Assembly (NCBI GenBank): GCA_039805545.1
Contig: JBDLUA010000007.1
Coordinates: 1,252 to 65,251, forward strand
DNA length: 64,000 nt
Source: Candidatus Parcubacteria bacterium
GTDB lineage: Bacteria; Patescibacteriota; Minisyncoccia; Phycocordibacterales; JAACPR01
Direction: 5' to 3'
Shown: positions 12,063 through 39,892 of the stretch, piece after piece
Position numbering within the stretch: the first letter of the stretch is position 1
Layout of the letters: each line of letters starts with the position of its first letter
The notes under the pieces: generated by a model
What the model was told of the DNA's origin: nothing
The model's database searches: none
Seen by the model: only the letters and a program-made list of their open reading frames with translations
Position numbers and translations under genes: made by a program

Positions 12063-12088
12063 TATTTTAAGGGAACAAACAAACCATT

Positions 12089-12499: not shown

Positions 12500-12572
12500 C
12501 AAAAATAAAGAGCTCAACACGAAAGTGTTGGGCGATTTATTTTGAGCTTTTGTTTTATGATATACTCTCGAC

Positions 12573-12812
12573 ATGATTGAACAATTTAAAAAACCAAAAG
12601 AAGAATTTACAAAAGAAGAACTTAGAGACATTCTAGAACTTTCAGGAAAGGGTCTGGATGCCAATCTCGGTGATTTAGCGAATACGCTTCTTGAGGAAAA
12701 AGAAAAAGAAGGATTGGATGATAAAGAAATTTTGGAAAGAGCAATGCTTCTTGCAAAAAAGTTGATTTTGGTTGAAGTGAAACAAGCAATAGATGCTTCG
12801 CATTTTGAATAA
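12573..12812 (+). CDS. Hypothetical small acidic protein
   Basis: ORF only. Confidence 0.3.
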   Translation: MIEQFKKPKEEFTKEELRDILELSGKGLDANLGDLANTLLEEKEKEGLDDKEILERAMLLAKKLILVEVKQAIDASHFE

Positions 12813-13554: not shown

Positions 13555-13606
13555 AGGGGTACTATTAGGAATAGGAATTCGTTCCAAAATTTTCTGGCCC
13601 TGTTTG

Positions 13607-13692
13607 GGTCAGCGACCGCACGCTACCAGATGGATCCGCGCACGCAACAGGAGGGGTAAACCTTAAAACGGTAAAACCTGTTGCGTGCGCGA
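13607..13692 (+). terminator. Long hairpin terminator GCGCACGCAACAGG...CCTGTTGCGTGCGC + T-tract after the rluA-family gene
   Basis: 14-bp perfect stem with a 25-nt loop, followed by GATTTATTTTT. Confidence 0.5.
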
Positions 13693-13737
13693 TTTATTTT
13701 TGACAAGGAGCACTATTTGATGTAAAGTATTTTGGTA

Positions 13738-13935
13738 TGGCTCAGAAAAACCAGCATCAAGTGGGTCGGACCAAGTCCGGCAGAGTTCAGCGCAATGGAC
13801 AACACAAGCAAGGCAAGGAGGGAGGAAGTGTCAAAGCCATTCCTTTCAATCAGTCTGCACGTGTTGGACATCGTGCTTGGGTCTGATTTCACTTCGTCGT
13901 TTCGGGGTGGTCGCGCAAGCGGCCACCCTTTTTCT
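13738..13935 (+). ncRNA. Candidate structured small RNA (GC-rich, promoter-to-terminator unit) upstream of rplS; identity unresolved
   Basis: TTGACA(13702)-17nt-TAAAGT promoter-like site, a ~200-nt segment far GC-richer than the flanks with nested hairpins, ending in terminator GGGTGGTCGCgcaaGCGGCCACCC+TTTTTC. The overlapping 74-aa ORF looks spurious. Confidence 0.35.
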
Positions 13936-13995
13936 TTAAATATTGATAAATTTTAACAACTATGTTAAAGTCTTCCTACTAATAAATTTAATAAT

Positions 13996-14431
13996 CATGA
14001 ACACAGTAATAACTCCAGTAGATATTGCCTCACGAAAAAACCTCGATATGCGAACCGGGGACACTGTTCGAGTATGGCAAAAAATCCAGGAAAAAGGAAA
14101 AACACGACTTCAAGCGTTTGAAGGAATCGTTCTTGCACGAAAACATGGTGCAGAAGCAGGTGCAACATTTACAGTACGACGAAATACTAATGGTTTTGGT
14201 GTAGAAAAAATCTTCCCACTTTATTCTCCAATGATCGATAAGATTGAAATCGTAAAACGATCAAAGACTCGACGAAGTAAACTTTACTATATGCGAGATA
14301 AAGCACTTAAAGAAATCAGTAAACGATTTAAGATGATGTCTGTTAAGTTCTCGACAGAAGATCATAAAGAAGTTGTTCCTGAAGTTGTAGAAGAGGCTCC
14401 AGTAGAAACAGTAGAAGAAAAGAAAGACTAA
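13996..14431 (+). CDS. rplS: 50S ribosomal protein L19 with acidic C-terminal tail
   Basis: RTGDTVRVWQKIQEKGKTRLQAFEGIV matches the L19 core. The start is more likely the ATG at 13996 than 13943. Confidence 0.85.
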
Positions 14432-14444
14432 TATAAAAAGAGAA

Positions 14445-14480
14445 AAGGGGGAGGCCTTCGGCCTCCCCCTTTTCTCTTTT
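14445..14480. terminator. Intrinsic terminator GGGGGAGGCCttcgGCCTCCCCC + T-tract
   Basis: GC hairpin and TTTTCTCTTTT after rplS. Confidence 0.7.
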
Positions 14481-14539
14481 ATAAAAATATGTATAATCAA
14501 AGCACTTATCAAAAACCTCGATAAGAAGTGAATGTGTAT

Positions 14540-14621
14540 GCGCAAGTGGTGAAATTGGTATACACGCACCCTTGAGGTGGGTGTGCCTTCGGGTGTGGAG
14601 GTTCAAGTCCTCTCTTGCGCA
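14540..14621 (+). tRNA. tRNA-Leu (anticodon GAG), long variable arm
   Basis: GCGCAAG acceptor, anticodon loop TTGAGGT, variable arm TGCCTTCGGGTGT, T-loop TTCAAGT. Followed by a long A/T-rich hairpin terminator at 14622-14670. Confidence 0.85.
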
Positions 14622-14746
14622 CTGAAAAATAAAGAGCCAAACACAAAGTGTTCGGCTCTTTATTTTTCAGGAAAGATTAACGAAGTAGGCTTTTCTTTGT
14701 ATTCGATTTGAGGTATTCTTGTTTTTGAAAACCTAAGGTAAAACCC

Positions 14747-15025
14747 ATGAAACGAAATGATAAGGATAAGTTCCTCCAAAAGATCGAGCGAGTTAGAAAT
14801 GCTGCCCTCAAACAGCTTCAAGAAATGGCGGCACTCTACAAACTTCAAGTCAAAGATGATCTTCGGTATCGCACCACCATTGAATTGGTTCATTGGTATT
14901 GCAACGATGCAAAGGAGTTTTCCCGAGAGAGATCGCTAGGGATGTTTGTCGGATTGATTTCTAACCTGCGCCGAATCATTGCCTCTCTTCCTGTTGTGGT
15001 CCTTGAGGACTATTACTCGACATGA
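14747..15025 (+). CDS. Hypothetical protein
   Basis: ORF between tRNA-Leu and tRNA-His. No motif recognised. Confidence 0.3.
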   Translation: MKRNDKDKFLQKIERVRNAALKQLQEMAALYKLQVKDDLRYRTTIELVHWYCNDAKEFSRERSLGMFVGLISNLRRIIASLPVVVLEDYYST

Positions 15026-15040
15026 GGATTGTTTTTTTCG

Positions 15041-15070
15041 AAAGGCGGCCCGAACGGGCCGCCTTTTCTC
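15041..15070. terminator. Intrinsic terminator GGCGGCCCgaacGGGCCGCC + T-tract
   Basis: GC hairpin plus TTTTCTCC. Confidence 0.7.
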
Positions 15071-15122
15071 CTGGACATTTCCCTATAAAATTAGTACTAT
15101 CTTGCTACACAGATGTGTATAT

Positions 15123-15195
15123 GGCGACTATGGTGTAACGGTTAACACAGCGGTCTGTGGATCCGCTGATTCGGGTTCGATTCCCGATAGCCGCC
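15123..15195 (+). tRNA. tRNA-His (anticodon GTG) with encoded G-1
   Basis: An extra 5' G pairs with discriminator C, the tRNA-His hallmark. Anticodon loop CTGTGGA, T-loop TTCGATT. There is one A-C mismatch in the acceptor stem. Confidence 0.8.
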
Positions 15196-15197
15196 CA

Positions 15198-18757: not shown

Positions 18758-21709
18758 ATGAAGAAATTATTTTTGTTTTTATCTTTTATTATATTTATTT
18801 TTTGTATCAAGCATGCCGGTGCTCAAGTTGAAGAAATAGTTCTCTACTCTAAAGATGGTTTTAGTATTAAGACACAGTCGTTTGTGTTGGATGAAAAAGG
18901 TAACACATCTTTGGTCAAAAACTCAGATTTATATGTAGGTTTTAAAGATGAGGGTGTTGATTTTGAATATGATGAACCAAAAATTTCTTTTGAAATAAAA
19001 GATTCAAATAATAACTCCATAAGAAAAATAAATACACCTACATCCAAAAGAAATGGTGAGAGTCCAGATCTTCAAAAATATTTAGAAGACAATAAAGAAT
19101 ATTTTGATCAAGTAAGATTAGATAAAAATAATATAATAGTAAAAACCCCTGTTGATTTTGCTGGTGGCGAATATACATTGATTTTTAAGGTCAAATATGC
19201 GGAAAAAGAAAAAACTATGGAGCATAAAGTTATTGTTTCTAAATCTGCCTACTCTTTCTCTAATTTTAAACTTTCTTTAGAAGATGATGATTTTTTGGCT
19301 GCCATTGAATATAAAGCGCCAATTGATGTCGAAGAGGATGTAATAATTGACGTTTCTTTGAATAAGGAAGGAATAGAAATCTTTAAAAAAGAGTTTCCTA
19401 AAAAGATGTATGAGGAAGGAACAATTGTAATTGATGAGAAAGTAGAGAATATTAAGAAAGATTCAGATAAAGCGCTTTTTACTTTTAAAATAAAGGATAA
19501 AACAGGGGAGGTTGTATACGAGACTACTCAAAAAGTAAACTCAGAACACGCAAATAATATGTATAAATATATTTATATTGGAGCAATTTTAATTTTATTA
19601 ACACTTGCTTTTGTTGTGATAAAAAAAGTAAAGTCTAAAAAAATAAAAATTCCTACAGTAGTTTTCATTTTTATGCTTACAAGTATTTCTCTTACAAGAG
19701 TGTATGCGGTTGAGAAGTGTGGTGGTGTCAATCAGCCAGAAGATTTTTGCTTTGAAGATAAAATTGTTACATATGTGTGTAAAAATACATATACGTGTGA
19801 TGTTGAAGATGCTCGGTTAAAAAAGTATTTTTCTACTGGAAATATTGTAAATATTCAAACTGAGCAAGAGTGGGTTGGTCCGGTATCTGCAACAATTAAT
19901 ATTTGTAATAATATTGGGCAAACACTCAACACGGGAGACGCTTTTTATGTAATAAGTGATTCAAATGGATCTAGTTGGCAACGAAAAAGATATCACGTAT
20001 TCAGATTTGTTAAAGGTACAGAAAATACTGTTACATTTGATCCTGGAGGAGATAAAAGAAATGTTAACTATGCCACATATAATGGAGGGTGTAGTGTAAC
20101 AGTGTATTCAAGATATAGTGGAGATTCATCAAACTTTAAGAGCGCCGATACAAAGATTATTGAAACAGGAAAAGTAACCCCAAGTATGTGTAAGTCAAAA
20201 GCTGTCAATGAGGATACTTTTGAAAGTAATGCATCCATGCTCGACAGAGATGATTGTACTCAATCTGAGCTTCGAGATACCTGGATTGCTGGAAGTGTAT
20301 ATTTTAATCCTATCTATAGTTCAAATTCTTGGGCAGAAAAAACTGTAAATGTATGTAATTATCTTGGATATACAGAGAACACAATACCTGAAGGAAAGGC
20401 ATTCTATGCGCTCATGGAACAAACTAGTTCTTGGACAATGATTGATTATCCGGTGTTTAGGTATTTTTTTGGTACACCAGGAACAAATTATTATGAAGGG
20501 AATATAACTGTTGAATGGGCAAATAAAAATACATATAGATTTGATGGATACAAAGAAAATGTCCCTACTATGAAATATGATGGCGAATGTACAATTACAT
20601 TTAGGCTTTATAATAGAGGAGAGGATACTGACTCGTGGACTCATGGATATAAATTGATTGAATTAGGAATGGTTGAAGATGCAACTTGTCGAGACGAACA
20701 TATTGTTGAACACTCAACCGCGACATTTGATGGGGCATATCGGTATTCTGGAAGAGGATTAACAGATGGTGTGGTTGAAGATTGGACCAAACGAGCGGGT
20801 GGAAAGTATTCTGTTATGGCCCCATTTATGAGAAGTCTTTCTGATTGTGTCGGTACTTCACAGTGTGACTTAAATGGTGAATGGATAAAATCCTACACTA
20901 ATACTGCATGCCCACCCCCTACTTGCGATACAAGTCATACTGTTGGTGCTGATGCTGGTTGTAGTGTAAATAATAAAGAACAAACATGGCAATGTACAAA
21001 TGGAAGTTGGACAGTTTCTGAAGGGTCTAACTTGTGCACAACTTTGGATTGTACGGTTGATAATACTGAGGTTGAATCAGGTGATCCTGTTACGTATACT
21101 GCAACTTTAATTACAAACGCTTTTTATAAGTGGTGGACCACACCTACTTCTCAAATTTTAAATGAGAATGCAAGAACATATACTGCAACGTATACAAACG
21201 GCGGAACTTATAATCGAATAGTAACCGCAACCAACGGAACAACTGTACAAAGTAAATCTTGTCCTTCAGTTGAAGTAAATATTTCATGTAATGGAACAAA
21301 ACCAAATGATTCTGCTTGTGTAAATGGTTCTCAGACTATATACAATTCAACATGTGATTCTGATGGAAGTTGGGGATATCAAGTTGTGGCTTGTGGTAAT
21401 GCTACAACGACCGATGACGGTACACCAACTTTAACAAGGTTTAGCTTTAGTCCAAATATGGCAAGCGGAACAACTTGTCCACTCTATGTTCAGGTAGATA
21501 ATGCACAATTATGTAAAATAAAAAATCGATCAATCTATACGCAATTACAAGATACAGGAACTTCTCCAACGGAATTTTCTGTAAACGGTTATTCGTATCC
21601 AGTTGGTACATATACGCTTGAGTGTGCTGCATCTTCAACTAATCCATCATATGTATCTATGAATGCGCAGGCATCTTGTTATACGAATCCAATTATTAAA
21701 GAAAACTAA
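18758..21709 (+). CDS. Large secreted/surface protein with internal TM segments and tandem Cys-containing domains
   Basis: N-terminal signal peptide. A hydrophobic helix at ~aa 265 is followed by a second signal-peptide-like segment (KKIKIPTVVFIFMLTSISLTRVYA). Then two ~115-aa repeats and Cys-rich modules. Confidence 0.5.
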   Translation: MKKLFLFLSFIIFIFCIKHAGAQVEEIVLYSKDGFSIKTQSFVLDEKGNTSLVKNSDLYVGFKDEGVDFEYDEPKISFEIKDSNNNSIRKINTPTSKRNGESPDLQKYLEDNKEYFDQVRLDKNNIIVKTPVDFAGGEYTLIFKVKYAEKEKTMEHKVIVSKSAYSFSNFKLSLEDDDFLAAIEYKAPIDVEEDVIIDVSLNKEGIEIFKKEFPKKMYEEGTIVIDEKVENIKKDSDKALFTFKIKDKTGEVVYETTQKVNSEHANNMYKYIYIGAILILLTLAFVVIKKVKSKKIKIPTVVFIFMLTSISLTRVYAVEKCGGVNQPEDFCFEDKIVTYVCKNTYTCDVEDARLKKYFSTGNIVNIQTEQEWVGPVSATINICNNIGQTLNTGDAFYVISDSNGSSWQRKRYHVFRFVKGTENTVTFDPGGDKRNVNYATYNGGCSVTVYSRYSGDSSNFKSADTKIIETGKVTPSMCKSKAVNEDTFESNASMLDRDDCTQSELRDTWIAGSVYFNPIYSSNSWAEKTVNVCNYLGYTENTIPEGKAFYALMEQTSSWTMIDYPVFRYFFGTPGTNYYEGNITVEWANKNTYRFDGYKENVPTMKYDGECTITFRLYNRGEDTDSWTHGYKLIELGMVEDATCRDEHIVEHSTATFDGAYRYSGRGLTDGVVEDWTKRAGGKYSVMAPFMRSLSDCVGTSQCDLNGEWIKSYTNTACPPPTCDTSHTVGADAGCSVNNKEQTWQCTNGSWTVSEGSNLCTTLDCTVDNTEVESGDPVTYTATLITNAFYKWWTTPTSQILNENARTYTATYTNGGTYNRIVTATNGTTVQSKSCPSVEVNISCNGTKPNDSACVNGSQTIYNSTCDSDGSWGYQVVACGNATTTDDGTPTLTRFSFSPNMASGTTCPLYVQVDNAQLCKIKNRSIYTQLQDTGTSPTEFSVNGYSYPVGTYTLECAASSTNPSYVSMNAQASCYTNPIIKEN

Positions 21710-23929: not shown

Positions 23930-24748
23930 ATGATTATATCCGGTAAAGAAATACAAACTAAATATATCGAAGCTCTCAAAGAGAAGGTTTTAAAAATGGA
24001 ACATAAACCTGTGCTGGTGATTATTCAAATTGGAGAAAACAAAGCTTCGCAAGTATACATTAATCAAAAGATTAAATTTGGAAAACTTCTTGGAGTACCT
24101 GTTGAATTTTATCAACTCGAAGAAGATGTTACTTTGGAATTTGTCCAAAAGCTTATTGGAGATTTTAACCATGATGATGATATTTGTGGAATTATCGTAC
24201 AACTTCCACTTCCACAGCATCTTAAACAATTTCAGTTTGAAATCATCGATGCAATTGAACCAGAAAAAGATGTAGATGGACTCACTTCTACAAATCTTAA
24301 AAGATTAATGAGTAGCGAAGGGGGTCTCGTACCTGCAACTGCAAAAGGTATTATGACTATGCTCAAAGAATCTAATATTGAAGTAAATGGCAAACATGTT
24401 GTCGTAGTTGGGCGATCTGTTCTTGTTGGACGAAGTCTTTCACAGTTGCTTTTGAATCAAGATGCAACAGTAACGGTATGTCACTCTAAAACAAAAAATC
24501 TAGCATCAATTACTAAAGGTGCTGATATTATTATTACTGCAACAGGTCAACCTAAACTTATTACCAAGGAACATGTGTCAGAGGGACAAACTGTAATTGA
24601 TGTAGGAATTACTTCTACAGGAGAACTTTTGGAGGGTGATGTGGATTTTGAGGAGGTTTCTAAAATTGTACAGAATATTTCCCCCGTACCGGGCGGGGTA
24701 GGACCCATGACTGTTTTGAGCTTGTTTGAGAATTTGATTGAAAAATAG
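23930..24748 (+). CDS. folD: Bifunctional methylenetetrahydrofolate dehydrogenase/cyclohydrolase FolD
   Basis: VVVVGRSVLVGRSLSQLLL...ATVTVCHSKT and GIIVQLPLP motifs. Confidence 0.9.
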   Translation: MIISGKEIQTKYIEALKEKVLKMEHKPVLVIIQIGENKASQVYINQKIKFGKLLGVPVEFYQLEEDVTLEFVQKLIGDFNHDDDICGIIVQLPLPQHLKQFQFEIIDAIEPEKDVDGLTSTNLKRLMSSEGGLVPATAKGIMTMLKESNIEVNGKHVVVVGRSVLVGRSLSQLLLNQDATVTVCHSKTKNLASITKGADIIITATGQPKLITKEHVSEGQTVIDVGITSTGELLEGDVDFEEVSKIVQNISPVPGGVGPMTVLSLFENLIEK

Positions 24749-26097: not shown

Positions 26098-27771
26098 ATG
26101 AAAAAGAAAAATCATAAGTATATCTTTGTTATTGGAGGTGTGATGTCTGGAGTGGGTAAGGGGGTAGCGACAGCTTCGATAGGAACCATCCTTGAGTCCA
26201 TGAATTACAAAGTAAATCTTATGAAAGTTGATCCGTATCTGAATGTAGATGCGGGGACTATGAACCCCACCGAACACGGTGAGGTTTTTGTTTTAAACTC
26301 AGGACTTGAAACTGATCAAGATATGGGAAATTATGAAAGATTTTCAAATAAAGACGCAGATGATTTTTCTTATATGACTTCTGGAATGGTGTATCGAGAT
26401 GTAATTGAAAAAGAAAGAAATCTTGCATATGGTGGAAGATGTGTAGAAGCAATTCCTGATATTCGAGATGAGATAATTGCTCGTTTTAAAAAATCAGCAG
26501 TAAATAGTAAGGCAGATATCTCGATTGTTGAAATCGGAGGAACTATTGGTGATTTTCAAAATGCATTATTTTATGAAGCGGCACGGGTAATGAAATTCCA
26601 TAATCCAGAGGATGTAATATTTGTTATGGTATCGTATCTTCCAATTCCGGGAACACTTGGAGAAATGAAAACTAAACCAACTCAAAATGCGATTAGACAA
26701 TTAAGTTCTTTTGGTATTCAAGCTGATTTTATTATTGCACGAAGTTCAATTCCAATGGATGAAAAAAGAAAAGAAAAACTTGCGCTTACTTGTGGACTCA
26801 AGAAGGGTGCAGTTATTTCTGCTCCAGACATAGAGAGTATTTATGATGTTCCACTTAATTTTGAAAAAGATAAAATTGGAGAGATGGTTATTAAGGCATT
26901 AAGTCTTCCTGTTCGTGTTCCTGACTTAAGTAAATGGAAAAACTTTGTCCAAAAAACAAAGAATACAAAAGATGAAGTTCATATTGCAGTAGTTGGAAAG
27001 TACTTTGATACAGGAGACTTCGTTCTTTCAGATTCATACCTGTCCGTAATTGAAGCAATAAAATTCTCTGCGTATCATTTAAATAAAAAAGCTAAGATTT
27101 CATGGCTTAATTCAAAGGAATTTGAAAAAGACCCAAAGAAGGTGAAAAACCTTGATCAATATGACGGAGTTCTTGTTCCAGGAGGATTTGGTGGGACAGG
27201 AATAGAAGGAAAGATAAATGTAATTAAATATTGTCGAGAAAACAAAATTCCATACTTTGGAATTTGTTATGGGATGCAATTGCTTGTTGTTGAGTATGCA
27301 CGAAATGTCGCAAAGTTAAAAGATGCACATACAACAGAAATTAATTCAAAAACAAAGTACCCTGTTATAGATGTAATGCTTGAACAAAAAGAAAAACTTG
27401 CAAACAATCAATACGGAGGAACAATGCGACTAGGGTCTTATGATTGTGTGCTCGAAGAGGGGACTATTGCATATAACGCATATACAAAAACAAAATATTG
27501 GAATATTCAAAAAGGAAATAGTATTTCGGAAAGACATAGACATCGATATGAAGTAAACCCAATGTTTGTAGAACAATTATCTGATTCAGGACTTGTGTTT
27601 TCTGGGACTTCACCAGACAAAAAACTTATGGAAATTGCAGAACTTCCAAAATCACAACACCCATTCTTCCTGGGTGCACAATTTCATCCAGAGTTTAAGG
27701 GGCGACCAATATCACCACATCCATTGTTTACGGAGTTTGTGAAGGCAGCAATAGGGAATAAGAAAGGTTAA
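26098..27771 (+). CDS. pyrG: CTP synthase
   Basis: N-terminal synthase domain GVMSGVGKG and C-terminal class-I glutamine amidotransferase GICYGMQL...H..F. Confidence 0.95.
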   Translation: MKKKNHKYIFVIGGVMSGVGKGVATASIGTILESMNYKVNLMKVDPYLNVDAGTMNPTEHGEVFVLNSGLETDQDMGNYERFSNKDADDFSYMTSGMVYRDVIEKERNLAYGGRCVEAIPDIRDEIIARFKKSAVNSKADISIVEIGGTIGDFQNALFYEAARVMKFHNPEDVIFVMVSYLPIPGTLGEMKTKPTQNAIRQLSSFGIQADFIIARSSIPMDEKRKEKLALTCGLKKGAVISAPDIESIYDVPLNFEKDKIGEMVIKALSLPVRVPDLSKWKNFVQKTKNTKDEVHIAVVGKYFDTGDFVLSDSYLSVIEAIKFSAYHLNKKAKISWLNSKEFEKDPKKVKNLDQYDGVLVPGGFGGTGIEGKINVIKYCRENKIPYFGICYGMQLLVVEYARNVAKLKDAHTTEINSKTKYPVIDVMLEQKEKLANNQYGGTMRLGSYDCVLEEGTIAYNAYTKTKYWNIQKGNSISERHRHRYEVNPMFVEQLSDSGLVFSGTSPDKKLMEIAELPKSQHPFFLGAQFHPEFKGRPISPHPLFTEFVKAAIGNKKG

Positions 27772-28412
27772 AGTTCTACTCTAAAATCTTTTTTGATCTT
27801 TTCAATTTCCCCATCCTTGATAAGTTTTACCTCATCTTTATATTTATTTCGAACCATAAAACCATCAATAATATCTTTATTGTGATATGTACCTTTCTCT
27901 TTCTTTGAAGGTTCTGAAAGCTCTTCAAAAGTAACCTGACAGAATCGTTCTCCTGGATAAATAGTGATAATTTGGCTTTGAGTATTGTTTCGAATTGGAA
28001 TAATCAGTTGCCCTGAATATCCAGTATCTACAATTCCTGTAAGATCAACAGATAATCCTCGTCGATTAGTTGATGAACGTGGATAGAGTACTGACATTAC
28101 ATCATCTGGCCATGTAATCGTTTCAAGTGTAGATGCAAGAATGTGTTCACCTGGAAGAAGTTCAAACTTTTGTCCTTTTTCTAATTCAACTACTTCAAAA
28201 TTTTGTACATCATCTTTTTGATTCATATAATCAAACGCAAGTGCCTCACGCCCTTGTGCTGTAATATGCCATTGTTTTGGAATAAGAAATGTATATCCGA
28301 GTCTAAGGTCAATTGCATGTGCTTGCAATTGAAATTCATCAAGTGCTGGTTCTATTTGGATACTACCACTTTTAATTCGTTCAAGAATTTGTCGTTTTGT
28401 GAGGATTCCCAT
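27768..28412 (-). CDS. dcd: dCTP deaminase (dUTPase-fold)
   Basis: VDTGYSGQLIIPIRN and an N-terminus typical of Dcd. First gene of the minus-strand dcd-folA-thyA operon. Confidence 0.8.
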   Translation of the reverse strand: MGILTKRQILERIKSGSIQIEPALDEFQLQAHAIDLRLGYTFLIPKQWHITAQGREALAFDYMNQKDDVQNFEVVELEKGQKFELLPGEHILASTLETITWPDDVMSVLYPRSSTNRRGLSVDLTGIVDTGYSGQLIIPIRNNTQSQIITIYPGERFCQVTFEELSEPSKKEKGTYHNKDIIDGFMVRNKYKDEVKLIKDGEIEKIKKDFRVEL

Positions 28413-28414: not shown

Positions 28415-28915
28415 TTATATAATTATTTGATATTCCAATAATAGCGTGTTTTGTGAGAGAGGGGTAGAGGATATAAGTTCAAGTTTTTTCATGTGTAATT
28501 TTGAAAAAAGAGGAATACCTTCTCCAAATACAATTGGTTCGAGGGTAATGTAAAGCTTTTGAACGAGACCTGATTCCAAGAAGAGTGAATAAATTGAACT
28601 TCCACCACATATTGCAACAGACTCGTGTCCTTCTTGCTCGAGTCGAGTGAGAAGGACTGCGGGAGACTCGGATGTTGTCTCAACTCCTTCAATATTGAGA
28701 GATCTTGAGGTATATACAATAGTCCTTCTTCCTGGAAGTGCTTTACCAATAGTTTCAAACGTTGTTCGTCCCATCACGACTACACCTGTTTCTTTTGTTT
28801 TCTTTATAAAAAATTCTTTATCCGCACCACTTGTCCAAGAGAGGGATGTTGTGTGTTCTTTTGGACTAATAAATCCATCAAGTGATTGTGCTGCAATGAT
28901 AAATGTTGAAATCAT
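28415..28915 (-). CDS. Dihydrofolate reductase family protein (RibD_C/DHFR-like fold)
   Basis: LDGFIS...VMGRTTFE...LYITLEPIVFGEG resembles the DHFR/RibD-C pattern. Adjacent to thyA. Confidence 0.6.
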   Translation of the reverse strand: MISTFIIAAQSLDGFISPKEHTTSLSWTSGADKEFFIKKTKETGVVVMGRTTFETIGKALPGRRTIVYTSRSLNIEGVETTSESPAVLLTRLEQEGHESVAICGGSSIYSLFLESGLVQKLYITLEPIVFGEGIPLFSKLHMKKLELISSTPLSQNTLLLEYQIII

Positions 28916-29754
28916 AATACAATTTTTAATCCTTTAATCGCGGGAGCGGGTTTGTATTGTTTTTTGAAGTGTTTTGTAATTTCTTCTACAAGCTTAATAT
29001 CTTTCTTTTCTGCTTTTGAAAAAGATTTTGGAGGTAGCATAAGTGTAACTTTTTTATGTGAATGTTTTCTTTTAATAATTTCCTTTGCAGTATCATAATG
29101 AATGTCATAGATGTGTGCATTTGAAATTGTGTGAGTATAAATTCCTGGTTTTACTTCAAGTTCTTGTGCAAGGATACATTGAAGCAATGCAAAACCGGCA
29201 ACATCATGAGGAAATCCAAGAATCATATCGTTTGATCGAACTACAAGATGAAGATGAAGTTTTCCTCCGATGATGTTTACGGTGAATGTATATGGACAAG
29301 GAACATTCTTTTTTACGACACCACCAAGTCCATCACTTGCAGGATCCCACATTACAACTACTCCATGTCGTGAGCTTGGATCTTTTTTTAATAAATCAAT
29401 AAGAAGTTTGAGTTGATCCCGACCAAAATGCTTTCGCCATCGATATCCATATGCAACAGTTACTACATCTCCAGGATTTGTAAAAATATCCCAAATTTTT
29501 GTGAAATTTCTAAGGAAGTCAGCAGGTTTACGAGATCCAGAGATAAACCATGCCTGTTCAGCAACAAAGAGTTGAATAGGAATCTCTCGAAGTGTAAGAA
29601 GAGGAAAGCCATCCTTCTCTATATCCATAGAAAACGTAAGTCCAGGAAGCGCTTTGGTCTCATGACCTGTTCGGGCATTTTTTTCGGCAATGCCGTCTTT
29701 CATAATATCTTTTAAAAGATTTTGATAAATTGTGTCGAATTTGGTCATTGGCAT
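28912..29754 (-). CDS. Thymidylate synthase family enzyme (ThyA-like) with Asn-to-Asp change at the pyrimidine-specificity position
   Basis: Aligns ungapped to ThyA over NVPCPYTFTVNIIGGKLHLHLVVRSNDMILGFPHDVAGFALL vs [41 protein letters not shown]. The catalytic Cys is present. The conserved Asn (Ec N177) is Asp here. Confidence 0.8.
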   Translation of the reverse strand: MPMTKFDTIYQNLLKDIMKDGIAEKNARTGHETKALPGLTFSMDIEKDGFPLLTLREIPIQLFVAEQAWFISGSRKPADFLRNFTKIWDIFTNPGDVVTVAYGYRWRKHFGRDQLKLLIDLLKKDPSSRHGVVVMWDPASDGLGGVVKKNVPCPYTFTVNIIGGKLHLHLVVRSNDMILGFPHDVAGFALLQCILAQELEVKPGIYTHTISNAHIYDIHYDTAKEIIKRKHSHKKVTLMLPPKSFSKAEKKDIKLVEEITKHFKKQYKPAPAIKGLKIVL

Positions 29755-29821: not shown

Positions 29822-29854
29822 ACGCGGTTTAACCCCGGCGGGGTTAAACCGCGT
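29822..29854. promoter_or_regulatory. Perfect 33-bp GC-rich palindrome ACGCGGTTTAACCCCGgCGGGGTTAAACCGCGT between divergent thyA-like and dCMP deaminase genes
   Basis: Exact reverse-complement symmetry. It lies in a divergent promoter region, so it is an operator candidate rather than a terminator. Confidence 0.45.
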
Positions 29855-29877: not shown

Positions 29878-30382
29878 TATGCTCAAAGACATGAAGAACA
29901 TTCAGTATCCATATCTTCCAGAAGGAAGAGAGATCAAATACGTTTCAATTTTAAATCCATTTATGGCTCGTGCAAAAGAAGTCGCACAAACGATGTCGCT
30001 CGACAAGGTTATGCCTGGTGGTGCTATTGTCGTTAAAGATGGTCAAATCATCGGTGAAGACGGAAATGGAAGTGATTATCACGAAACTCATGAGTGCGAA
30101 CGAGTGAAGCAAAACTGCCCAAGTGGACAAGGGTATGAACTCTGTGAAGGGTGTCATCCTAAGAATCACTCTGAACGAAGTGCCATCACAGATGCTTTGG
30201 AGAGAGGTAACAATCCGCAAGGGGCAGACCTGTATCTTTGGGGTCATTGGTGGTGCTGTGAACCGTGTTGGGATGAGATGATTAAGGCAGGGATCAAAGA
30301 TGTATACCTGCTTGAGGGGAGTGAGGAACTCTTTGATAAAAATCATCCAAACAATATTGTTGGGCGGCAATTTGAGGGCTAA
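29878..30382 (+). CDS. dCMP deaminase-like (cytidine/deoxycytidylate deaminase zinc-binding family)
   Basis: HSERSAI (H-x-E) and CCEPCWDEMIKAGIKDVYL (PCxxC) zinc motifs. The ORF-track 5' extension at 29807 is the palindrome read in frame. A GC-hairpin terminator follows at 30402-30440. Confidence 0.7.
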
Positions 30383-30472
30383 ATGGCTGCGAAAGCGGCG
30401 CGATCCCGAAGGGATCGCGCCGCATTTTCTTTGTGCTACAAAAAAGACACAAACAGCTTTAACGAATTCATC

Positions 30473-31645
30473 ATGAAGGATACACAAGTAGAAAAGCTCA
30501 TCAAAGCAGAGCGAGAGCGACAGGGTAAAGTTATTAACTTAATTGCATCCGAAAATATTGTATCCAAGGATGTTCTTGAAGCACTCGGAAGTGAACTCAC
30601 AAACAAATATGCAGAAGGATATTCTCATGCACGATACTATGGCGGAAATGAAATCATAGACAAAGTAGAAGATCTTTGTATCGAACGAGCACTTAAAACT
30701 TTTGGTCTTTCAGAAAATAAATGGCATGTAAATGTACAACCTCTTTCTGGTTCTCCTGCAAACCTTGGAGTATATTCTGCACTTCTAAATCCTGGTGACA
30801 AAATTATGGCAATGGATCTTTCTCATGGAGGACACCTTACACATGGATTTAAAGTTTCTTTCACAGGAAAAATTTATACTCAAATTGCATACGGTGTAGA
30901 CGAAAAAACTTTTATGCTTGATTACGACAAACTCGCTGCTCTCGCAAAAAAAGAAAAACCAAAACTTATTATCACAGGATACTCTGCATATCCACGAAAA
31001 ATTAATTTCAAAAAGTTTAGAGAAATTGCAGATAGTGTAGGCGCACTTCTTATGGTTGATATGGCACACATTGCAGGACTTGTTGCAGCAGGTGCCCATC
31101 CAAGTCCATTTACCTATGCAAATATTGTAACTTCAACAACACATAAGACACTTAGAGGTCCACGATCTGGAATTATTTTTGTAAAAAAAGACACACGAGA
31201 GTTGGATAAAAAAATAGACAAGGCAGTGTTTCCAGGACTTCAAGGTGGTCCACATATGAATCAAATTGCAGCGGTTGCAGTTGCTCTCAAAGAAGCACAA
31301 ACTCCCGCATACAAAAAATATATTGAACAAGTATGTAAGAATGCAAAAGTACTCGCTGATGAACTTAAAAAAAGAGGATGGAGAATTCTTTCTGGAGGAA
31401 CAGATAACCATCTAGTTCTTGTTGATGTGTGGATGGATGGAAAGGGAATAGGAGGAAAGGATGCTTCAGATAAACTTGAAAAGGCAGGAATTATTGTAAA
31501 CAAGAATACAATTCCAGGAGAAACACGAACACCAGTGAATCCATCTGGAATTAGACTTGGAACTGCAGCTGAGACAACACGAGGATTGAAAGAGAAAGAT
31601 TTTATTATCATCGCAAAGAGAATAGATGAAATTTTAAGGAAATAA
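30473..31645 (+). CDS. glyA: Serine hydroxymethyltransferase
   Basis: NLIASENIVS, TNKYAEGY and TTHKTLRGPR (PLP lysine) motifs. Start taken at MKDTQVEKL. Confidence 0.95.
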   Translation: MKDTQVEKLIKAERERQGKVINLIASENIVSKDVLEALGSELTNKYAEGYSHARYYGGNEIIDKVEDLCIERALKTFGLSENKWHVNVQPLSGSPANLGVYSALLNPGDKIMAMDLSHGGHLTHGFKVSFTGKIYTQIAYGVDEKTFMLDYDKLAALAKKEKPKLIITGYSAYPRKINFKKFREIADSVGALLMVDMAHIAGLVAAGAHPSPFTYANIVTSTTHKTLRGPRSGIIFVKKDTRELDKKIDKAVFPGLQGGPHMNQIAAVAVALKEAQTPAYKKYIEQVCKNAKVLADELKKRGWRILSGGTDNHLVLVDVWMDGKGIGGKDASDKLEKAGIIVNKNTIPGETRTPVNPSGIRLGTAAETTRGLKEKDFIIIAKRIDEILRK

Positions 31646-31662: not shown

Positions 31663-32292
31663 ATGAGCACATCAAAAGGAAAACTTATCGTAATTGATGC
31701 AGGTGATGGTGCAGGAAAATCCACTCAAATAGAGAACCTTCGAAAACTCTTTGGTGAAAGATTCTTACTTACAAGGGAACCTGGCGGAACAGAATATGCT
31801 GAAGCAATTCGAACTCTTGCCCTAGATCATCCTCTTGCCAAAGATGCAGATGGAAAAACATTGTTCATGCTTATGTGGGCATCACGTGCAGAGCATATGA
31901 ACCATCTCGTTATACCATCTTTGAAAGAAGGGAAGATTATTGTGAGTGATAGATTTGATTCTGCAACTTTTGCCTACAATGTCTGTGCACAAGGACAAGA
32001 ACAACTCAAGGATTACTTTTGGGACACCCGCAAAATGGTTCTTGGTGATTATGCACCAGATCTTTATCTGTATTTGGATCTACCTCCCGAGATTGGGGAG
32101 GAAAGGTTATCCGGTCGTGATGATACTAAGAATCATTTCGATCAAAGACCGATGGACTTCAAATATAAAGTTCGAGAAGGCTTTTTAGAATTTTGTGAGA
32201 AGGTCCCACATGCAGTTGTTGATGCAACTCAAAGTAAGGAAAAAATGTTCGAGGATATTTTGAGAATTTTGAAAGAATATAATATTGCATAG
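31663..32292 (+). CDS. tmk: Thymidylate kinase
   Basis: P-loop IVIDAGDGAGKST, TREPGGT and DRF motifs. Confidence 0.9.
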   Translation: MSTSKGKLIVIDAGDGAGKSTQIENLRKLFGERFLLTREPGGTEYAEAIRTLALDHPLAKDADGKTLFMLMWASRAEHMNHLVIPSLKEGKIIVSDRFDSATFAYNVCAQGQEQLKDYFWDTRKMVLGDYAPDLYLYLDLPPEIGEERLSGRDDTKNHFDQRPMDFKYKVREGFLEFCEKVPHAVVDATQSKEKMFEDILRILKEYNIA

Positions 32293-32349
32293 TTGAAGGC
32301 GGGCGACCCGAAGGGTTGCCCGCCTTTTTCTTTTTGTTAAAGTATACTC

Positions 32350-32772
32350 ATGAACATTAAAGTAAAAAAACTACATCCAGATGCTGTTGTTCCAAAGATT
32401 GCACACACAGGGGATGCTGGGTGTGATTTATTTGCAACAGAGAGCGTGACTTTAAAGCCAGGAGAAAGAGGGCAAGTCCCTACGGGACTTGCCCTCGAAA
32501 TCCCGCAAGGCTACGTAGCACTCATCTGGGACAAGAGCGGAGTTTCTCATAAAGGGGGTATCAAAACCCTTGGTGGTGTGATAGATTCTGGGTATCGAGG
32601 TGAGTGGTTGGTTGGTGTAATTAACCTTGGGATAGAAGAGTATACCTTTGAAAAAGGTCATAAGGTTGCCCAATTTCTAATTCAAAAAATAGAAACACCA
32701 ACTTTTGAAGAAGTGATAGAATTATCTGATACAAGTAGGGGAGATAACGGATTTGGGAGTACAGGAAAATAA
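32350..32772 (+). CDS. dut: dUTP diphosphatase
   Basis: AGCDL, GLALEIPQGY, and GVIDSGYRGE motifs of trimeric dUTPase. Confidence 0.9.
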   Translation: MNIKVKKLHPDAVVPKIAHTGDAGCDLFATESVTLKPGERGQVPTGLALEIPQGYVALIWDKSGVSHKGGIKTLGGVIDSGYRGEWLVGVINLGIEEYTFEKGHKVAQFLIQKIETPTFEEVIELSDTSRGDNGFGSTGK

Positions 32773-32811
32773 CCTTCGCTCCGACCGAATTCGGTCGGAG
32801 CGAGCAAAAAA

Positions 32812-36406: not shown

Positions 36407-39400
36407 ATGTCAGACACATCAAACAACGAACCAAATCTAAGTGCGGTTGCACAGAAGGAGAAGGAGATACTAGAGTTTTGGAATACAAATCAAATTTTTA
36501 AAAAATCTCTAGAAAAAGATTCACCAAAGGGGGAGTTTACTTTTTATGATGGTCCTCCTTTTGCAACAGGACTTCCTCACTATGGGCATATTCTCGCCGG
36601 AACAATGAAGGATGTGATTCCTCGATATAAGACAATGCTTGGATATCATGTTCGAAGACAGTGGGGTTGGGATTGTCATGGGCTTCCAATTGAGAAGATG
36701 ATTCAGTCTGAACATAATCTTACTACCAAAAAAGACATTGAAGAATTTGGTATAAAAAAATTTAACCAAGCTGCAAAGGCAAGTGTGTTTAAGTACGATA
36801 AAGAATGGAAACATACCGTTCCGCTTACTGGGCGATTTGTTGATATGGATACTTCGTATACAACAATGGATCCTTCTTTTACAAAATCAGTATGGTGGGG
36901 ATTTGGTGAAATTTATAAAAAAGGTTTGGTGTATGAAAGTTTCAAAGTAATGCATGTATCTCCACTTCTTGAAACAACGCTTTCTAACTTTGAAGTTAAT
37001 CAGGGATATCGAGATATCACAGATATCTCTGCAACAGTTAAATTTGAATTAGTTGATGAGCCAAATACATTTGTACTTGCATGGACTACAACTCCTTGGA
37101 CACTCCCTGGAAACGTTGCGCTCGCAGTAGGGAATGAAGTTATATATGTGAAACTTAAATTCGAAGATTCGTTTTACATTCTTGCAAAAGATTTGGTTGA
37201 AAAGAATTTTAAAGAAAAACAAATTGAAATCTCAGAAGAATATCTTGGAAGCGAACTTGTCGGAAAATCATATAAGCCAGTCTTTGAGTATTATGTAAAA
37301 GACAAGTCGCTTACAAATTATGAGAATGGATGGAAAATGTATCCTGCTGATTTTGTAACAACAACTGATGGAACAGGAATCGTACATATTGCTCCTGCCT
37401 TTGGAGAAGATGACCTCAATCTTGGCAAACAATTCAATCTTCCTTTTGTTCAACATGTAAAAATGAACGGAGAAATAAAAGAGGAGGTTACAGATCTTGC
37501 AGGACGACAAGCAAAGCCAAAGCATGATCCACAAGAGACTGATATTGAAGTAATTAAACTGCTTGCGCATAGAGGAACTCTTTTTGCAAAAGAAAAATAC
37601 ACTCACTCATATCCACATTGTTGGCGAACAGATGCGCCGCTTCTTAACTTCGCAACCTCATCATGGTTTATTAAAGTTACAGATCTTAAGGATCAACTTA
37701 TCAAGAATAACAACACTATTAAATGGGTTCCTGAAGCGGTTGGAACAGGACGATTTGGTAATTGGCTCAAGGAGGCAAAGGACTGGGCAATTTCTCGTTC
37801 ACGATTTTGGGGTACACCAATTCCAATTTGGAAATCAGAAGATAGGAAGGATGTAGAGGTGCTTTCATCTCTTGAACACATAAAAGAAAAAACAAAATCA
37901 ACCAACACCTATTTGGTTCTTCGACATGGAGAAGCTGAACATAACATTTCAAAGACAACTTCTGATACAAATGAAGTGCCTAGTCATCTAACACAAAAAG
38001 GCAAAGAACATATCTCACAAGTTGCACAAACTTTGAAAAATAAAAAAATAGATTTTATTTTTGTTTCACCTCTTATGCGAGCGCAAGAGACTGCAGAGAT
38101 TGTAAAAGAATGGTGTGGTCTTAATTCTGATCAAATCATCACAGACGAACGACTCAAAGAAGTTCAAACAGGATTCAATGGAAAGAGTAATGATGAATAT
38201 AAAAACTTTTTCAAAAATCTTGAAGATAGATATGAACATAAACATGAGTTGGGGGAGTCACTCCTTGATATAAAAAAGCGAGTAGGAGATTTTATCTATG
38301 ATATTGATTCAAAATATTCAAATAAAAATATTCTTATTATTTCGCATGAATACCCAATCTGGATGTTGATGTCTGTTAAGGATGGATTGAATAAAACACA
38401 AACACTTGCACTAAAAGAAATGGAAAGAGAGTTTGTTAAGACTGGTGATGTTGAAGAATTAGATTTTGCAAAGATTCCTCATGACGATAACTTTGAACTT
38501 GATTTTCATCGGCCTTATATCGATGAAATTACCTTTGTTCAAAATGGAAAAACATTTAGACGAATCGAAGATGTGTTTGATGGATGGATTGATTCAGGTG
38601 CAATGCCATTTGCAAGTGCAGGATATCCGTATTCAAAAAATGTATTCAAGCCAGGAAACTTTTTCTTCAAAGATAAAGGATTTCCAGCGGACTTTATTGC
38701 GGAAGGACTTGATCAAACACGAGGGTGGTTTTATACATTACTCGTATGGTCAACAGCACTCTTTGGAAAGGCTCCATTTAAACATGTAATTGTAAATGGA
38801 CTTGTACTTGCTGAGGATGGAAAGAAGATGGCTAAGTCTTTAAGGAATTATCCAGCTGTTGAAGATGTTCTATATAAGTATGGCGCAGATGCACTTCGAT
38901 ATTATTTGATGAGTTCAACTGCAGTAAAGGCAGATGACTTGAGATTTTCAGAGAAAGGAGTAGACGAGTCGATGAAGAAGATTGTAATGCGGCTTGATAA
39001 TGTGATTACATTCTATGAAATGTATAAGGATGATTCTGTTGTGCCAAGTAATTCAAGCTCACACATATTGGATAAATGGATTATTGCTCGACTCGCACAG
39101 ACAACTTCAGAAATTACAAAAGCACTTGAAGGATACGAACTTGATAAGGCTTCACGACCACTTATGGATTTTGTAGATGATCTCTCTACCTGGTACCTTC
39201 GAAGAAGTCGAGATAGATTGAAGTCAGATGGCGAAGATAAAAATCTTGCACTTGCAACACTCAGGTATTCACTTCGAGAATTTGCAAAAGTGATGGCACC
39301 AATTATGCCATTTAAGGCAGAGGACACCTATCTTCGAACACGAGAGATGAATGAAGTAGAAAGTGTTCATCTCTGTGCATGGCCTACAAATAATTCATTT

Positions 39401-39892
39401 GATGAAAGTATTCTTGTTGGAATGAAAGAAGTGCGAGATGTTGTAACTAAAGCACTTGAAGTTCGAGCTAAGGAAGCAATTAAGGTTCGACAGCCAATTC
39501 AAACTCTTGAAGTTAAAATTGCACTTGCTGATGAGTATAAAGATATTATTAAGGACGAAGTGAATGTAAAAGATATTGAGTTTAATGCACAACTTGAAAC
39601 TGATGTGTGGCTTGATACTACAATTACTCCAGAACTCAAAGAAGAGGGAGATGCACGAGAACTAATTCGAGCATTACAAGATCTTCGAAAGTCATCAGAA
39701 CTCTCTCCAGAAGATACAATCGTAGTACATCTTGCATGTTCAAGTGAATTCAAAACTATTGTAGAAAAATATTCTGACTTGATTCAATCAGTAACTCGAA
39801 CTCAAGAAATTATTTTTGAAAGTGAGTTACCTAGTGAGGAGATTGTATTGAATGAGTTTAAGGTGAAGGTGGTGGTGAGGAAGGTGGGGTAG
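36407..39892 (+). CDS. ileS: Isoleucyl-tRNA synthetase with an inserted histidine-phosphatase (PGAM-like) domain
   Basis: HYGH (HIGH), editing domain, and KMAKS (KMSKS). About 190 aa between PIWKSEDRK and DFHRPYIDEITF carry the RHGE, SPLMRAQETA and ISHE motifs of the histidine phosphatase superfamily. Total length is 1161 aa. Confidence 0.9.
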   Translation: MSDTSNNEPNLSAVAQKEKEILEFWNTNQIFKKSLEKDSPKGEFTFYDGPPFATGLPHYGHILAGTMKDVIPRYKTMLGYHVRRQWGWDCHGLPIEKMIQSEHNLTTKKDIEEFGIKKFNQAAKASVFKYDKEWKHTVPLTGRFVDMDTSYTTMDPSFTKSVWWGFGEIYKKGLVYESFKVMHVSPLLETTLSNFEVNQGYRDITDISATVKFELVDEPNTFVLAWTTTPWTLPGNVALAVGNEVIYVKLKFEDSFYILAKDLVEKNFKEKQIEISEEYLGSELVGKSYKPVFEYYVKDKSLTNYENGWKMYPADFVTTTDGTGIVHIAPAFGEDDLNLGKQFNLPFVQHVKMNGEIKEEVTDLAGRQAKPKHDPQETDIEVIKLLAHRGTLFAKEKYTHSYPHCWRTDAPLLNFATSSWFIKVTDLKDQLIKNNNTIKWVPEAVGTGRFGNWLKEAKDWAISRSRFWGTPIPIWKSEDRKDVEVLSSLEHIKEKTKSTNTYLVLRHGEAEHNISKTTSDTNEVPSHLTQKGKEHISQVAQTLKNKKIDFIFVSPLMRAQETAEIVKEWCGLNSDQIITDERLKEVQTGFNGKSNDEYKNFFKNLEDRYEHKHELGESLLDIKKRVGDFIYDIDSKYSNKNILIISHEYPIWMLMSVKDGLNKTQTLALKEMEREFVKTGDVEELDFAKIPHDDNFELDFHRPYIDEITFVQNGKTFRRIEDVFDGWIDSGAMPFASAGYPYSKNVFKPGNFFFKDKGFPADFIAEGLDQTRGWFYTLLVWSTALFGKAPFKHVIVNGLVLAEDGKKMAKSLRNYPAVEDVLYKYGADALRYYLMSSTAVKADDLRFSEKGVDESMKKIVMRLDNVITFYEMYKDDSVVPSNSSSHILDKWIIARLAQTTSEITKALEGYELDKASRPLMDFVDDLSTWYLRRSRDRLKSDGEDKNLALATLRYSLREFAKVMAPIMPFKAEDTYLRTREMNEVESVHLCAWPTNNSFDESILVGMKEVRDVVTKALEVRAKEAIKVRQPIQTLEVKIALADEYKDIIKDEVNVKDIEFNAQLETDVWLDTTITPELKEEGDARELIRALQDLRKSSELSPEDTIVVHLACSSEFKTIVEKYSDLIQSVTRTQEIIFESELPSEEIVLNEFKVKVVVRKVG

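Follow-up and report, generated by a model that had tools for sequence, protein, structure and literature searches.

A predicted Xp12-type dCMP methyltransferase in the thymidylate locus of candidate phyla radiation bacteria

Introduction

In the textbook scheme of cellular dTMP synthesis, dUMP is methylated by ThyA or ThyX. The opposite order, in which a cytosine nucleotide is methylated first and deaminated afterward, has so far found support only in phages with 5-methylcytosine (5mC)-substituted DNA. Here, we analyzed a 64,000-nucleotide stretch of DNA from a Candidatus Parcubacteria bacterium (GenBank assembly GCA_039805545.1, contig JBDLUA010000007.1, positions 1,252 to 65,251), hereafter called the window, and in particular the product of the gene at 28912-29754 on the minus strand, a ThyA homolog with Asp at the pyrimidine-specificity position that we refer to as ThyA(Asp). 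We consider it fairly probable, judging from its active-site residues and its relatives, that ThyA(Asp) is a natural Xp12-type dCMP C5-methyltransferase, fixed in the core chromosome of Paceibacteria-type members of the candidate phyla radiation (CPR) within a thymidylate locus, and that it belongs to a phage-type module leading from dCTP through dCMP and 5-methyl-dCMP to dTMP. The novelty would lie in an Xp12-type dCMP methylase/deaminase module that a major bacterial radiation has fixed as its core thymidylate locus, together with a deaminase subfamily of its own and a Dcd-fold partner without the catalytic Glu. No earlier description of an Xp12-type module in CPR or in other cellular organisms was found in the literature, most subscription journals not being covered by the search.

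Active site of ThyA(Asp)

ThyA(Asp) is a member of the ThyA superfamily (Pfam PF00303, Thymidylat_synt; E value of 8.2e-55, 186 bits against a cutoff of 24.3). It scores above the cutoff of the broad ThyA model TIGR03284 (131.3 bits versus 108.35) but below those of all the specific, PRK01827-type ThyA equivalog models (146 bits, with a cutoff of 327; 114-146 bits, with cutoffs of 325-427, over NF002495-NF002499), and its identity to E. coli ThyA is 28.6% (110 bits). The open reading frame (ORF) encodes 280 aa, but translation probably begins at its second Met (29748), because the homologs are 278 aa long. The AlphaFold2 model of the protein has the thymidylate synthase (TS) fold with a predicted local distance difference test (pLDDT) score of 82.9, the only low-confidence stretches being the clade-specific loops 92-103 and 135-151. 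All the top Foldseek matches of this model were TSs, with template modeling (TM) scores of 0.75-0.78 overall and of about 0.76-0.78 for canonical TS (EC 2.1.1.45). No solved structure of a natural Xp12-type enzyme was among these structure matches.

The original prediction, which was made from the letters of this DNA, held that the protein aligns without gaps to TS over its RS.D block, keeps the catalytic Cys, carries Asp instead of Asn at the pyrimidine-specificity position, and has lost His147 and the second Trp of the IWDEW motif, and each of these statements was confirmed here. In a phmmer comparison with the PDB, the RSNDMILGFPHDVAGFALL block of ThyA(Asp) paired gaplessly with canonical TSs, and careful alignment kept Asp184 (29203-29205) at the position of E. 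coli N177. The nucleophile C146 corresponds to Cys153 (29296-29298), H147 to Pro154 (29293-29295), and W83 to Phe91 (29482-29484). Two further substitutions are Asn150 (29305-29307) for L143 and His130 (29365-29367) for R127, and Gln165 is replaced by Val, whereas D169 is retained as Asp176 (29227-29229). In E. coli numbering, which is used below, ThyA(Asp) therefore differs from canonical ThyA by N177D, H147P, L143N, Q165V, W83F, and R127H, and it shares with canonical ThyA, as do nearly all of its relatives, the core residues E58, Y94, R21, R126, R166, S167, D169, H207, and Y209 as well as the catalytic Cys146. The F176 position, which lies in the FPHD motif of ThyA(Asp) (29203-29211), is occupied by His, Ala, Ser, or Thr in the CPR enzymes and by Tyr in the Xp12 group. 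F176 of E. coli, the Phe just before the specificity residue of canonical TS, is a folate-contacting residue, and its replacement suggests that the cofactor contacts are altered.

Positions 177 and 147 are the two best discriminators between cytosine-modifying and uracil-type ThyA homologs (PMC8670742), and the mutations N177D and N229D turn TS toward dCMP (cited in PMC8670742); PDB entry 1njc is the N229D mutant of TS with dCMP bound. A published list of the 12 residues that lie within 6 Å of C5 assigns Leu143 to methyl products, Asp or Glu143 to hydroxymethyl products (the acidic residue admitting water), and D169N to 5-hydroxy-dCMP synthases (PMC13326640). In ThyA(Asp), this shell reads W Y K N C P V S N D G D, compared with W Y K N C P L S S D G D in the Xp12 enzyme, W Y A L C H Q S C D G N in E. 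coli ThyA, and W Y S D C T M S N D G D in T4 gp42. Ten of the 12 residues, including Asp177, Asn143, Pro147, and Asp169, are thus identical to those of the Xp12 enzyme, the mismatches being V/L at 165 and N/S at 168, whereas only 6 of the 12 are shared with E. coli ThyA. With regard to the sugar, Lys/Ala is the ribose-specificity pair in MilA and BcmA, and Arg/Ser is found in deoxyribose-specific enzymes (PMC5175136); ThyA(Asp) has the deoxyribose-type pair, Arg129 and Ser174 in its own numbering.

Relationship to the phage enzymes

Among the 2,707 matching phage records, the best matches of ThyA(Asp) belonged to the Xp12 group (Xp12, Mallos, Elanor, Bosa, PaMx28, AAT-1, and Rhodobacter phages). 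Pairwise scores were 187-195 bits with Xp12-type proteins, 110-116 bits with E. coli ThyA and T4 Td, and only 45 bits with the T4 dCMP hydroxymethylase gp42, for which the sequence used was 100% identical to the T4 record. Reciprocally, the Xp12 enzyme preferred the CPR protein (164 versus 101 bits), and the best scores link the two in both directions. They also have in common a four-residue insertion ahead of the catalytic Cys (WDPAxDGLGxxxKNVPCP) and an AYGYRWRxHFGRDQL block, neither of which is present in E. coli ThyA.

The gene order in Xp12, RcSimone-Hastad, and PaMx28 is a pyrophosphohydrolase (HAD or MazG), the ThyA homolog, a dCMP deaminase, and dihydrofolate reductase (DHFR). Physical linkage with a deaminase and a DHFR is a trait that the CPR gene shares with the module of Xanthomonas phage Xp12, to which modules in PaMx28/AAT-1-type phages, Rhodobacter phages, and MetaGPA contigs are related. 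Formation of 5-methyldeoxycytidine (5mdC) in vivo has been reported for the Xp12 enzyme and for five out of seven Asp-type homologs that are linked to a deaminase. It has further been reported that the deaminases linked to such homologs are 5mC selective and that labeled cytosine ends up in both the 5mC and the T of Xp12 DNA, which bypasses any dUMP-dependent synthase (bioRxiv 10.1101/2024.12.05.627091).

Several natural fusions of the ThyA homologs were seen. Two representatives of the Asp-type clade unite functions that are also linked in the gene neighborhoods: P0143 (433 aa) is a fusion of a dCMP-family deaminase with ThyA(Asp), and P0165 (424 aa) is one of a PRA-PH/MazG-like pyrophosphohydrolase with ThyA(Asp). 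In P0155 (432 aa), a third representative of this clade, ThyA(Asp) is fused with an HNH endonuclease domain, and in P0262, a C-terminal fragment of ThyA is joined to a sugar transferase.

The closest relatives of the CPR enzyme outside CPR (56-59% identity) are encoded at 6001-6840 on two IMG/VR contigs, L089 and L090, both of which are viral contigs of low GC content (28-31%). On L090, the order is deaminase, ThyA(Asp), and HAD hydrolase, with a YqaJ recombinase and an RNA ligase alongside. These contigs may derive from phages of CPR bacteria and may represent a trace of exchange between phages and CPR.

Distribution and phylogeny

The Asp at the specificity position is shared by the orthologs. 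All of the 120 nearest homologs, which are 72-95% identical to the window protein and all come from metagenome-assembled genomes of CPR/Patescibacteria, carry the motifs GxPxD[VI][AG]G and PC[PL], and Asp177 together with a residue other than His at 147 is invariant in them. Their public annotations are all "thymidylate synthase." A scan of species-representative genomes found 215 with a ThyA(Asp) relative, and the locus counts given below refer to the best 80 of these. All 80 are Patescibacteria (Paceibacteria, Taylor-, Colwell-, Doudna-, Nomura-, and Adlerbacteria, and Minisyncoccia), and every one of the 77 loci with a readable motif has both Asp177 and Pro147.

An exhaustive HMMER search over 1.84 billion cluster representatives extended this picture. 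The approximately 87 closest clusters at 50% identity all have Asp177, a non-His residue (mostly Pro) at 147, Phe83, and usually Gln or His at 127, and the canonical combination of Asn, His, Trp, and Arg first appears at about cluster rank 88; Asp169 is present in 108 of 108 Asp-type representatives. The names of the nearest outgroup clusters (P0121-P0132) gave no clue to their origin. In a neighbor-joining (NJ) tree of 134 sequences, 115 of the 117 Asp-type proteins formed one clade with no Asn-type member, and this clade contains both the CPR group (bootstrap of 200/200) and the enzymes of the Xp12-group phages. ThyA(Asp) is grouped with the Asp-type clade that includes Xp12 rather than nested among ThyAs that are demonstrably dUMP methylases.

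ThyA(Asp) is a core chromosomal gene that is vertically inherited and conserved like the housekeeping genes for NusG, L11, and GlyA. Across 82 loci, its median identity to the window protein is 70.5%, compared with 76% for NusG, 67% for GlyA, and 61% for L11. The other genes of the window are those of an ordinary chromosome (PolA, RuvA, FolD, SecE/NusG/L11, PyrG, ArgS, IleRS, MetRS, RecA, and FtsK), and no phage genes were found in its 64 kb. A prophage or a recent horizontal transfer was ruled out by this housekeeping content, by the secE-nusG-rplK synteny, and by an identity that tracks NusG, L11, and GlyA. A tblastn search within the window found neither ThyX nor a second ThyA.

The thymidylate locus and its atypical members

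The genes for ThyA(Asp), a DHFR-like reductase (28415-28915; Pfam DHFR_1, 3.9e-19), and a Dcd-like protein (27768-28412; TIGR02274, 118.7 bits with a cutoff of 92.8) form a tight operon on the minus strand. Divergently, on the plus strand, lie the genes for a zinc deaminase of the dCMP-deaminase family (29891-30382; Pfam dCMP_cyt_deam_1, 3.7e-11), the serine hydroxymethyltransferase GlyA (30470-31645; Pfam SHMT, 2.6e-167; NF000586, 557 bits with a cutoff of 335), the dTMP kinase Tmk (31663-32292; TIGR00041, 125 bits with a cutoff of 83), and Dut, a canonical trimeric dUTPase (32350-32772; NF001862, 139 bits with a cutoff of 103). Since Tmk, Dut, and GlyA pass curated equivalog or subfamily cutoffs, exactly three proteins of the locus are atypical: ThyA(Asp) itself, the zinc deaminase, and the Dcd-like protein. 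The neighbors named in the original prediction were a DHFR-like gene, a deaminase gene, glyA, tmk, dut, and dcd; all of them stand except the last, whose product does not have the catalytic Glu of a dCTP deaminase.

In alignments, Pro139 of the Dcd-like protein (27996-27998) takes the position of the catalytic E138 of E. coli Dcd, at which the Dcd-Dut of M. tuberculosis also has Glu. The same Pro was found in 76 of 76 Dcd-like proteins linked to ThyA(Asp) in these loci and in 80 of 80 linked copies overall, and the Dcd-like gene adjoins that of ThyA(Asp) in 76 of the 80 CPR loci, the misses being contig ends. The protein is therefore probably not a deaminase, to judge from this residue, and may be a nondeaminating dCTP diphosphatase that supplies dCMP. 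T4 gp56 was examined as a precedent for a dCTPase with the Dcd fold and was rejected, as it is an all-alpha protein of the MazG type. Further Pro-type copies of the Dcd-like protein are encoded in loci L004 (7842-8471), L005 (7085-7729), and L093 (5443-6087).

The zinc deaminase carries an HSE motif (30167-30175), a CCEPC motif (30254-30268), and a second Cys/His cluster. Its family, which is confined to CPR and comprises about 1,500 proteins, goes by the names "hypothetical," "deaminase," or "deoxycytidylate deaminase," and across this family, H[AS]E and CxxC are invariant and occur in an unusual GHWW[AC]C context. The divergent deaminase gene lies upstream in 79 of the 80 CPR loci, and the only exception is a contig end. 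The protein scores far under the cutoff of the ComEB equivalog. The nearest folds of its structural model (pLDDT of 92) are those of the dCMP deaminases from T4, a cyanophage, a streptococcus, PBCV-1, and humans, with TM scores of only about 0.5 even for the best match, the T4 enzyme. We predict that it is a 5-methyl-dC nucleotide deaminase which yields a thymine nucleotide.

The stop codon of thyA(Asp) and the start codon of the DHFR gene overlap as ATGA (28912-28915). DHFR is thus translationally coupled to thyA(Asp) and is predicted to recycle the dihydrofolate (DHF) formed in reductive methylation. The DHFR gene adjoins that of ThyA(Asp) in 57-60 of the 80 CPR loci and is also found in the Xp12-group phages. 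As an observation on the reductase itself, it matches both DHFR_1 and RibD_C of Pfam and falls far under every NCBIfam DHFR cutoff (51.7 bits versus 168), and it is a divergent reductase with a presumed substrate.

Two other genes of the window touch on the same metabolism. PyrG, a CTP synthase (26098-27771, plus strand; Pfam CTP_synth_N and GATase), is encoded convergently with the Dcd-like gene and overlaps its end, and by its context it would be the upstream source of cytosine nucleotides. FolD, a methylene-tetrahydrofolate dehydrogenase/cyclohydrolase (23930-24748, plus strand), adds to the folate one-carbon context.

GC-rich perfect hairpins with stems of 12-15 bp, loops of the CCCGAAGGG type, and T-runs after them lie between the genes of the locus, at 29822-29854, 30395-30423, 32295-32327, and 32776-32803 (10 hairpins observed versus 3.4±2.0 expected). 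The one at 29822-29854 lies within the 5' leader of the deaminase gene and has no gene upstream to terminate. A role as an attenuator was rejected for it, because it is conserved in only 1 of 77 loci; the divergent intergenic regions of the other CPR loci are mostly 5-75 bp long.

An alternative module at the same site

Fusions of Tmk with ThyX form a very large CPR family, with 6,421 matches when the ThyX domain of locus L007 was used for the search. These proteins are about 770 aa long and are found, for example, in L007 (4188-6410) and L091 (8001-10319) and also in L092, L093, and L098-L102; a metagenome scan for further Tmk::ThyX loci gave only four matches. In synteny, Dcd followed by Tmk::ThyX is found exactly where other CPR genomes have the ThyA(Asp) module, between secE-nusG-rplK-rplA and rplJ-rplL. 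In eight of eight ThyX loci, ThyA, DHFR, and the zinc deaminase are missing from the site, and in all eight, the Dcd linked to ThyX keeps the catalytic Glu. In the L007/L093 lineage, both modules stand side by side, and the Dcd-like protein there is of the Pro type.

As read from their predicted enzymes, CPR bacteria use two alternative modules for thymidylate at a single locus. The first is the putative canonical dUMP route with a deaminating Dcd and ThyX, and the other combines a Dcd-fold protein that has lost the deaminase residue with a separate zinc deaminase and a methylase whose active site is of the cytosine type. The Tmk::ThyX module resembles the ThyA(Asp) module in its syntenic site and is presumably a functional alternative for dTMP supply, but its synthase is unrelated, its Dcd is of the Glu type, and it comes without DHFR, zinc deaminase, or ThyA.

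Discussion

For the ThyA(Asp) module, we propose a scheme in which methylation comes first and deamination second, so that dUMP would not be the methyl acceptor. The Glu-less Dcd-like protein would hydrolyze dCTP to dCMP without deamination, which is the weakest step. Cys153 of ThyA(Asp) would then attack C6 of dCMP, and the one-carbon unit of methylene-tetrahydrofolate (CH2-THF) would be transferred and reduced, giving 5-methyl-dCMP (5mdCMP) and DHF; we infer this step from the residues of the active site and from the clade to which the enzyme belongs. DHFR, GlyA, and FolD, to go by the families to which they belong, would regenerate CH2-THF. The zinc deaminase would convert the 5-methylcytosine nucleotide to the thymine nucleotide, at the level of 5mdCMP to dTMP or alternatively at the triphosphate level, like the phage protein mSCD-B5. 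Finally, Tmk would phosphorylate dTMP, and Dut would merely clear dUTP from the pool.

The original prediction had left it undecided whether this is an ordinary but divergent ThyA or a dCMP-modifying enzyme with an adjacent deaminase. The second option is favored by the membership in the Xp12 clade, by the difference between 187-195 and 110-116 bits, and by the 10 of 12 residues of the C5 shell. As for the product, 5-methyl- and 5-hydroxymethyl-dCMP had both been considered, and only the former is supported: a methyl product is predicted because Asn143 is the residue of Xp12, Asp169 is kept, and DHFR is coupled. The ATGA overlap between thyA and the DHFR gene also fits a methylation that produces DHF and does not fit hydroxymethylation.

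In this proposed logic, from dCMP to 5mdCMP and then by deamination to a thymine nucleotide, the CPR module would be like that of Xp12. However, the CPR module resides on the chromosome of a cellular lineage, where it is inherited vertically and conserved at the level of housekeeping genes; its deaminase comes from a separate, CPR-specific subfamily; it contains the Glu-less Dcd-fold protein where the phages have MazG or HAD hydrolases; GlyA, Tmk, and Dut are co-located with it; and there is no sign of modified DNA. Canonical ThyA, for its part, also has DHFR and GlyA as partners. The single-residue switch of ThyA(Asp) is the same as that in the engineered dCMP methylases L. casei N229D and E. 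coli N177D, although the natural clade goes beyond these mutants in its covarying changes at 143, 147, 165, 83, and 127 and in its insertion. T4 gp42, MilA/BcmA, and the RB69/DLP3 enzymes share with ThyA(Asp) the superfamily and the Asp at the specificity position, but none of their markers (an acidic residue at 143, D169N, and Lys/Ala at the sugar positions) is present in ThyA(Asp).

Several observations weigh against the assignment of ThyA(Asp) as a dCMP methylase. The nearest characterized enzyme is only about 36% identical to it, its C terminus is ThyA-like (...IKGLKIVL) and differs from that of Xp12 (...PEVIE), and the monophyly of the Asp-type clade has only a moderate NJ bootstrap (110/200). 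The canonical Dut of the operon yields dUMP, for which the scheme has no consumer, and no precedent for a dCTP diphosphatase with the Dcd fold was found. The covariation of Glu or Pro in Dcd with the type of synthase reflects a few evolutionary events and not 88 independent ones, and in the one lineage mentioned above, ThyX coexists with ThyA(Asp). A specific kinship of the CPR deaminase with the 5mC-selective deaminases of the Xp12 group was not found (E value of 0.003 against PaMx28 Cd). Moreover, 5mC selectivity is reported to be polyphyletic, with no sequence determinants defined (bioRxiv 10.1101/2024.12.05.627091), and the substrate of the CPR deaminase is therefore not predictable from its sequence.

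It might be supposed that ThyA(Asp) is an ordinary dUMP-dependent TS that tolerates Asp and that the deaminase is a normal dCMP deaminase making dUMP, so that deamination would come first and methylation second. This possibility, which we regard as rather unlikely, gains from the presence of every canonical partner at the locus (DHFR, GlyA, Tmk, and Dut, the last of which gives dUMP), from the score above the TIGR03284 cutoff and the ThyA-like C terminus, from public annotations that are all for TS, and from the deaminase model, whose fold is best matched by dCMP deaminases. It also gains from the syntenic site shared with the Dcd and ThyX module, which makes dTMP the probable end product under either order of reactions. 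However, ThyA(Asp) differs from canonical TS at 6 of the 12 C5-shell residues, including N177D, H147P, L143N, and Q165V, and the change N177D/N229D makes a TS a dCMP methylase; the nearest characterized relatives produce 5mdC, no Asn-type protein is found among the approximately 87 nearest clusters, and the protein scores below the cutoffs of all the specific ThyA equivalog models. On the strength of the six-position difference in the active site and of the clade membership, an ordinary divergent ThyA was set aside as the best reading of the protein and is kept as a rival to the dCMP methylase.

It has also to be considered that 5-methyl-dCMP is phosphorylated and incorporated into DNA, with 5mC replacing some or all of the cytosine as in Xp12 and with the deaminase diverting a part to thymidine. 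In that case, CPR chromosomal DNA would contain bulk 5mC, and 5-methyl-dCMP would in addition be a thymidylate precursor. The enzyme set is that of the Xp12-group phages with fully 5mC-substituted DNA, the Glu-less Dcd-like protein could provide the function that depletes dCTP, and the strong constraint on ThyA(Asp) even beside ThyX in the L007/L093 lineage hints at a role beyond dTMP supply. Nevertheless, we think that such bulk substitution is improbable. The module sits at a housekeeping site, where it alternates with the plain Dcd and ThyX module, and long-read assemblies exist for many CPR genomes, from which no global base modification is known to have been reported. No dedicated 5mdCMP kinase was found in the locus or in the 64-kb window, whereas coexpression of a phage dNMP kinase was required for the incorporation of 5mdC into the DNA of E. 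coli (bioRxiv 10.1101/2024.12.05.627091).

Another C5 chemistry or substrate, such as hydroxymethylation (T4 gp42/MilA), 5-hydroxylation (RB69 gp48/DLP3 gp80), or the modification of CMP for a metabolite, is very improbable even though Asp177 is common to all the cytosine-specific branches of the superfamily, since hydroxymethylases, 5-hydroxylases, and CMP-specific enzymes were ruled out by residues 143 (Asn as in Xp12, not the Asp/Glu of hydroxymethylases), 169 (Asp, versus the D169N of 5-hydroxy-dCMP synthases), and 126/167 (deoxyribose-type Arg129/Ser174, versus Lys/Ala in MilA/BcmA), and gp42 is matched with no more than 45 bits and the coupled DHFR implies the production of DHF.

If ThyA(Asp) is indeed a dCMP methylase, a large part of Patescibacteria would make thymidylate through dCMP methylation followed by deamination, and the reconstructions of CPR nucleotide metabolism would change. 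Thousands of annotations as "thymidylate synthase," "dCTP deaminase," and "hypothetical/deaminase" would have to be relabeled, and three new enzyme subfamilies would be gained. One would be a dCMP methylase found in nature, another a candidate deaminase for 5mC nucleotides, which would be of interest for methylation sequencing, and the third a protein with the Dcd fold but no deaminase chemistry. A DNA modification module of phages would also be tied evolutionarily to core cellular metabolism. Whether the DNA of a cell contains bulk 5mC becomes a directly testable question, and were this so, a base substituted before replication, made with the same enzyme set as in Xp12, would be known for the first time from a cellular organism.

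Other features of the window

Some features of the window lie apart from the thymidylate locus. An IleRS-like ORF of 1,161 aa (36407-39892, plus strand) has a His_Phos_1 domain inserted at residues 504-658 within its catalytic domain (E value of 1.8e-28). Two ORFs on the plus strand, of 912 aa (15456-18194) and 983 aa (18758-21709), have almost no family matches, the sole one being a weak match of the first to TraG-D_C, and a PilM-like gene lies with small ORFs of no known family at 9746-11775; together, the two ORFs and the PilM-like region may belong to a DNA uptake or secretion apparatus. Seven tRNA genes are scattered over 2365-15196, and a 23S rRNA gene on the plus strand is present only with its 5' part (63507-64000), the remainder lying beyond the end of the window.

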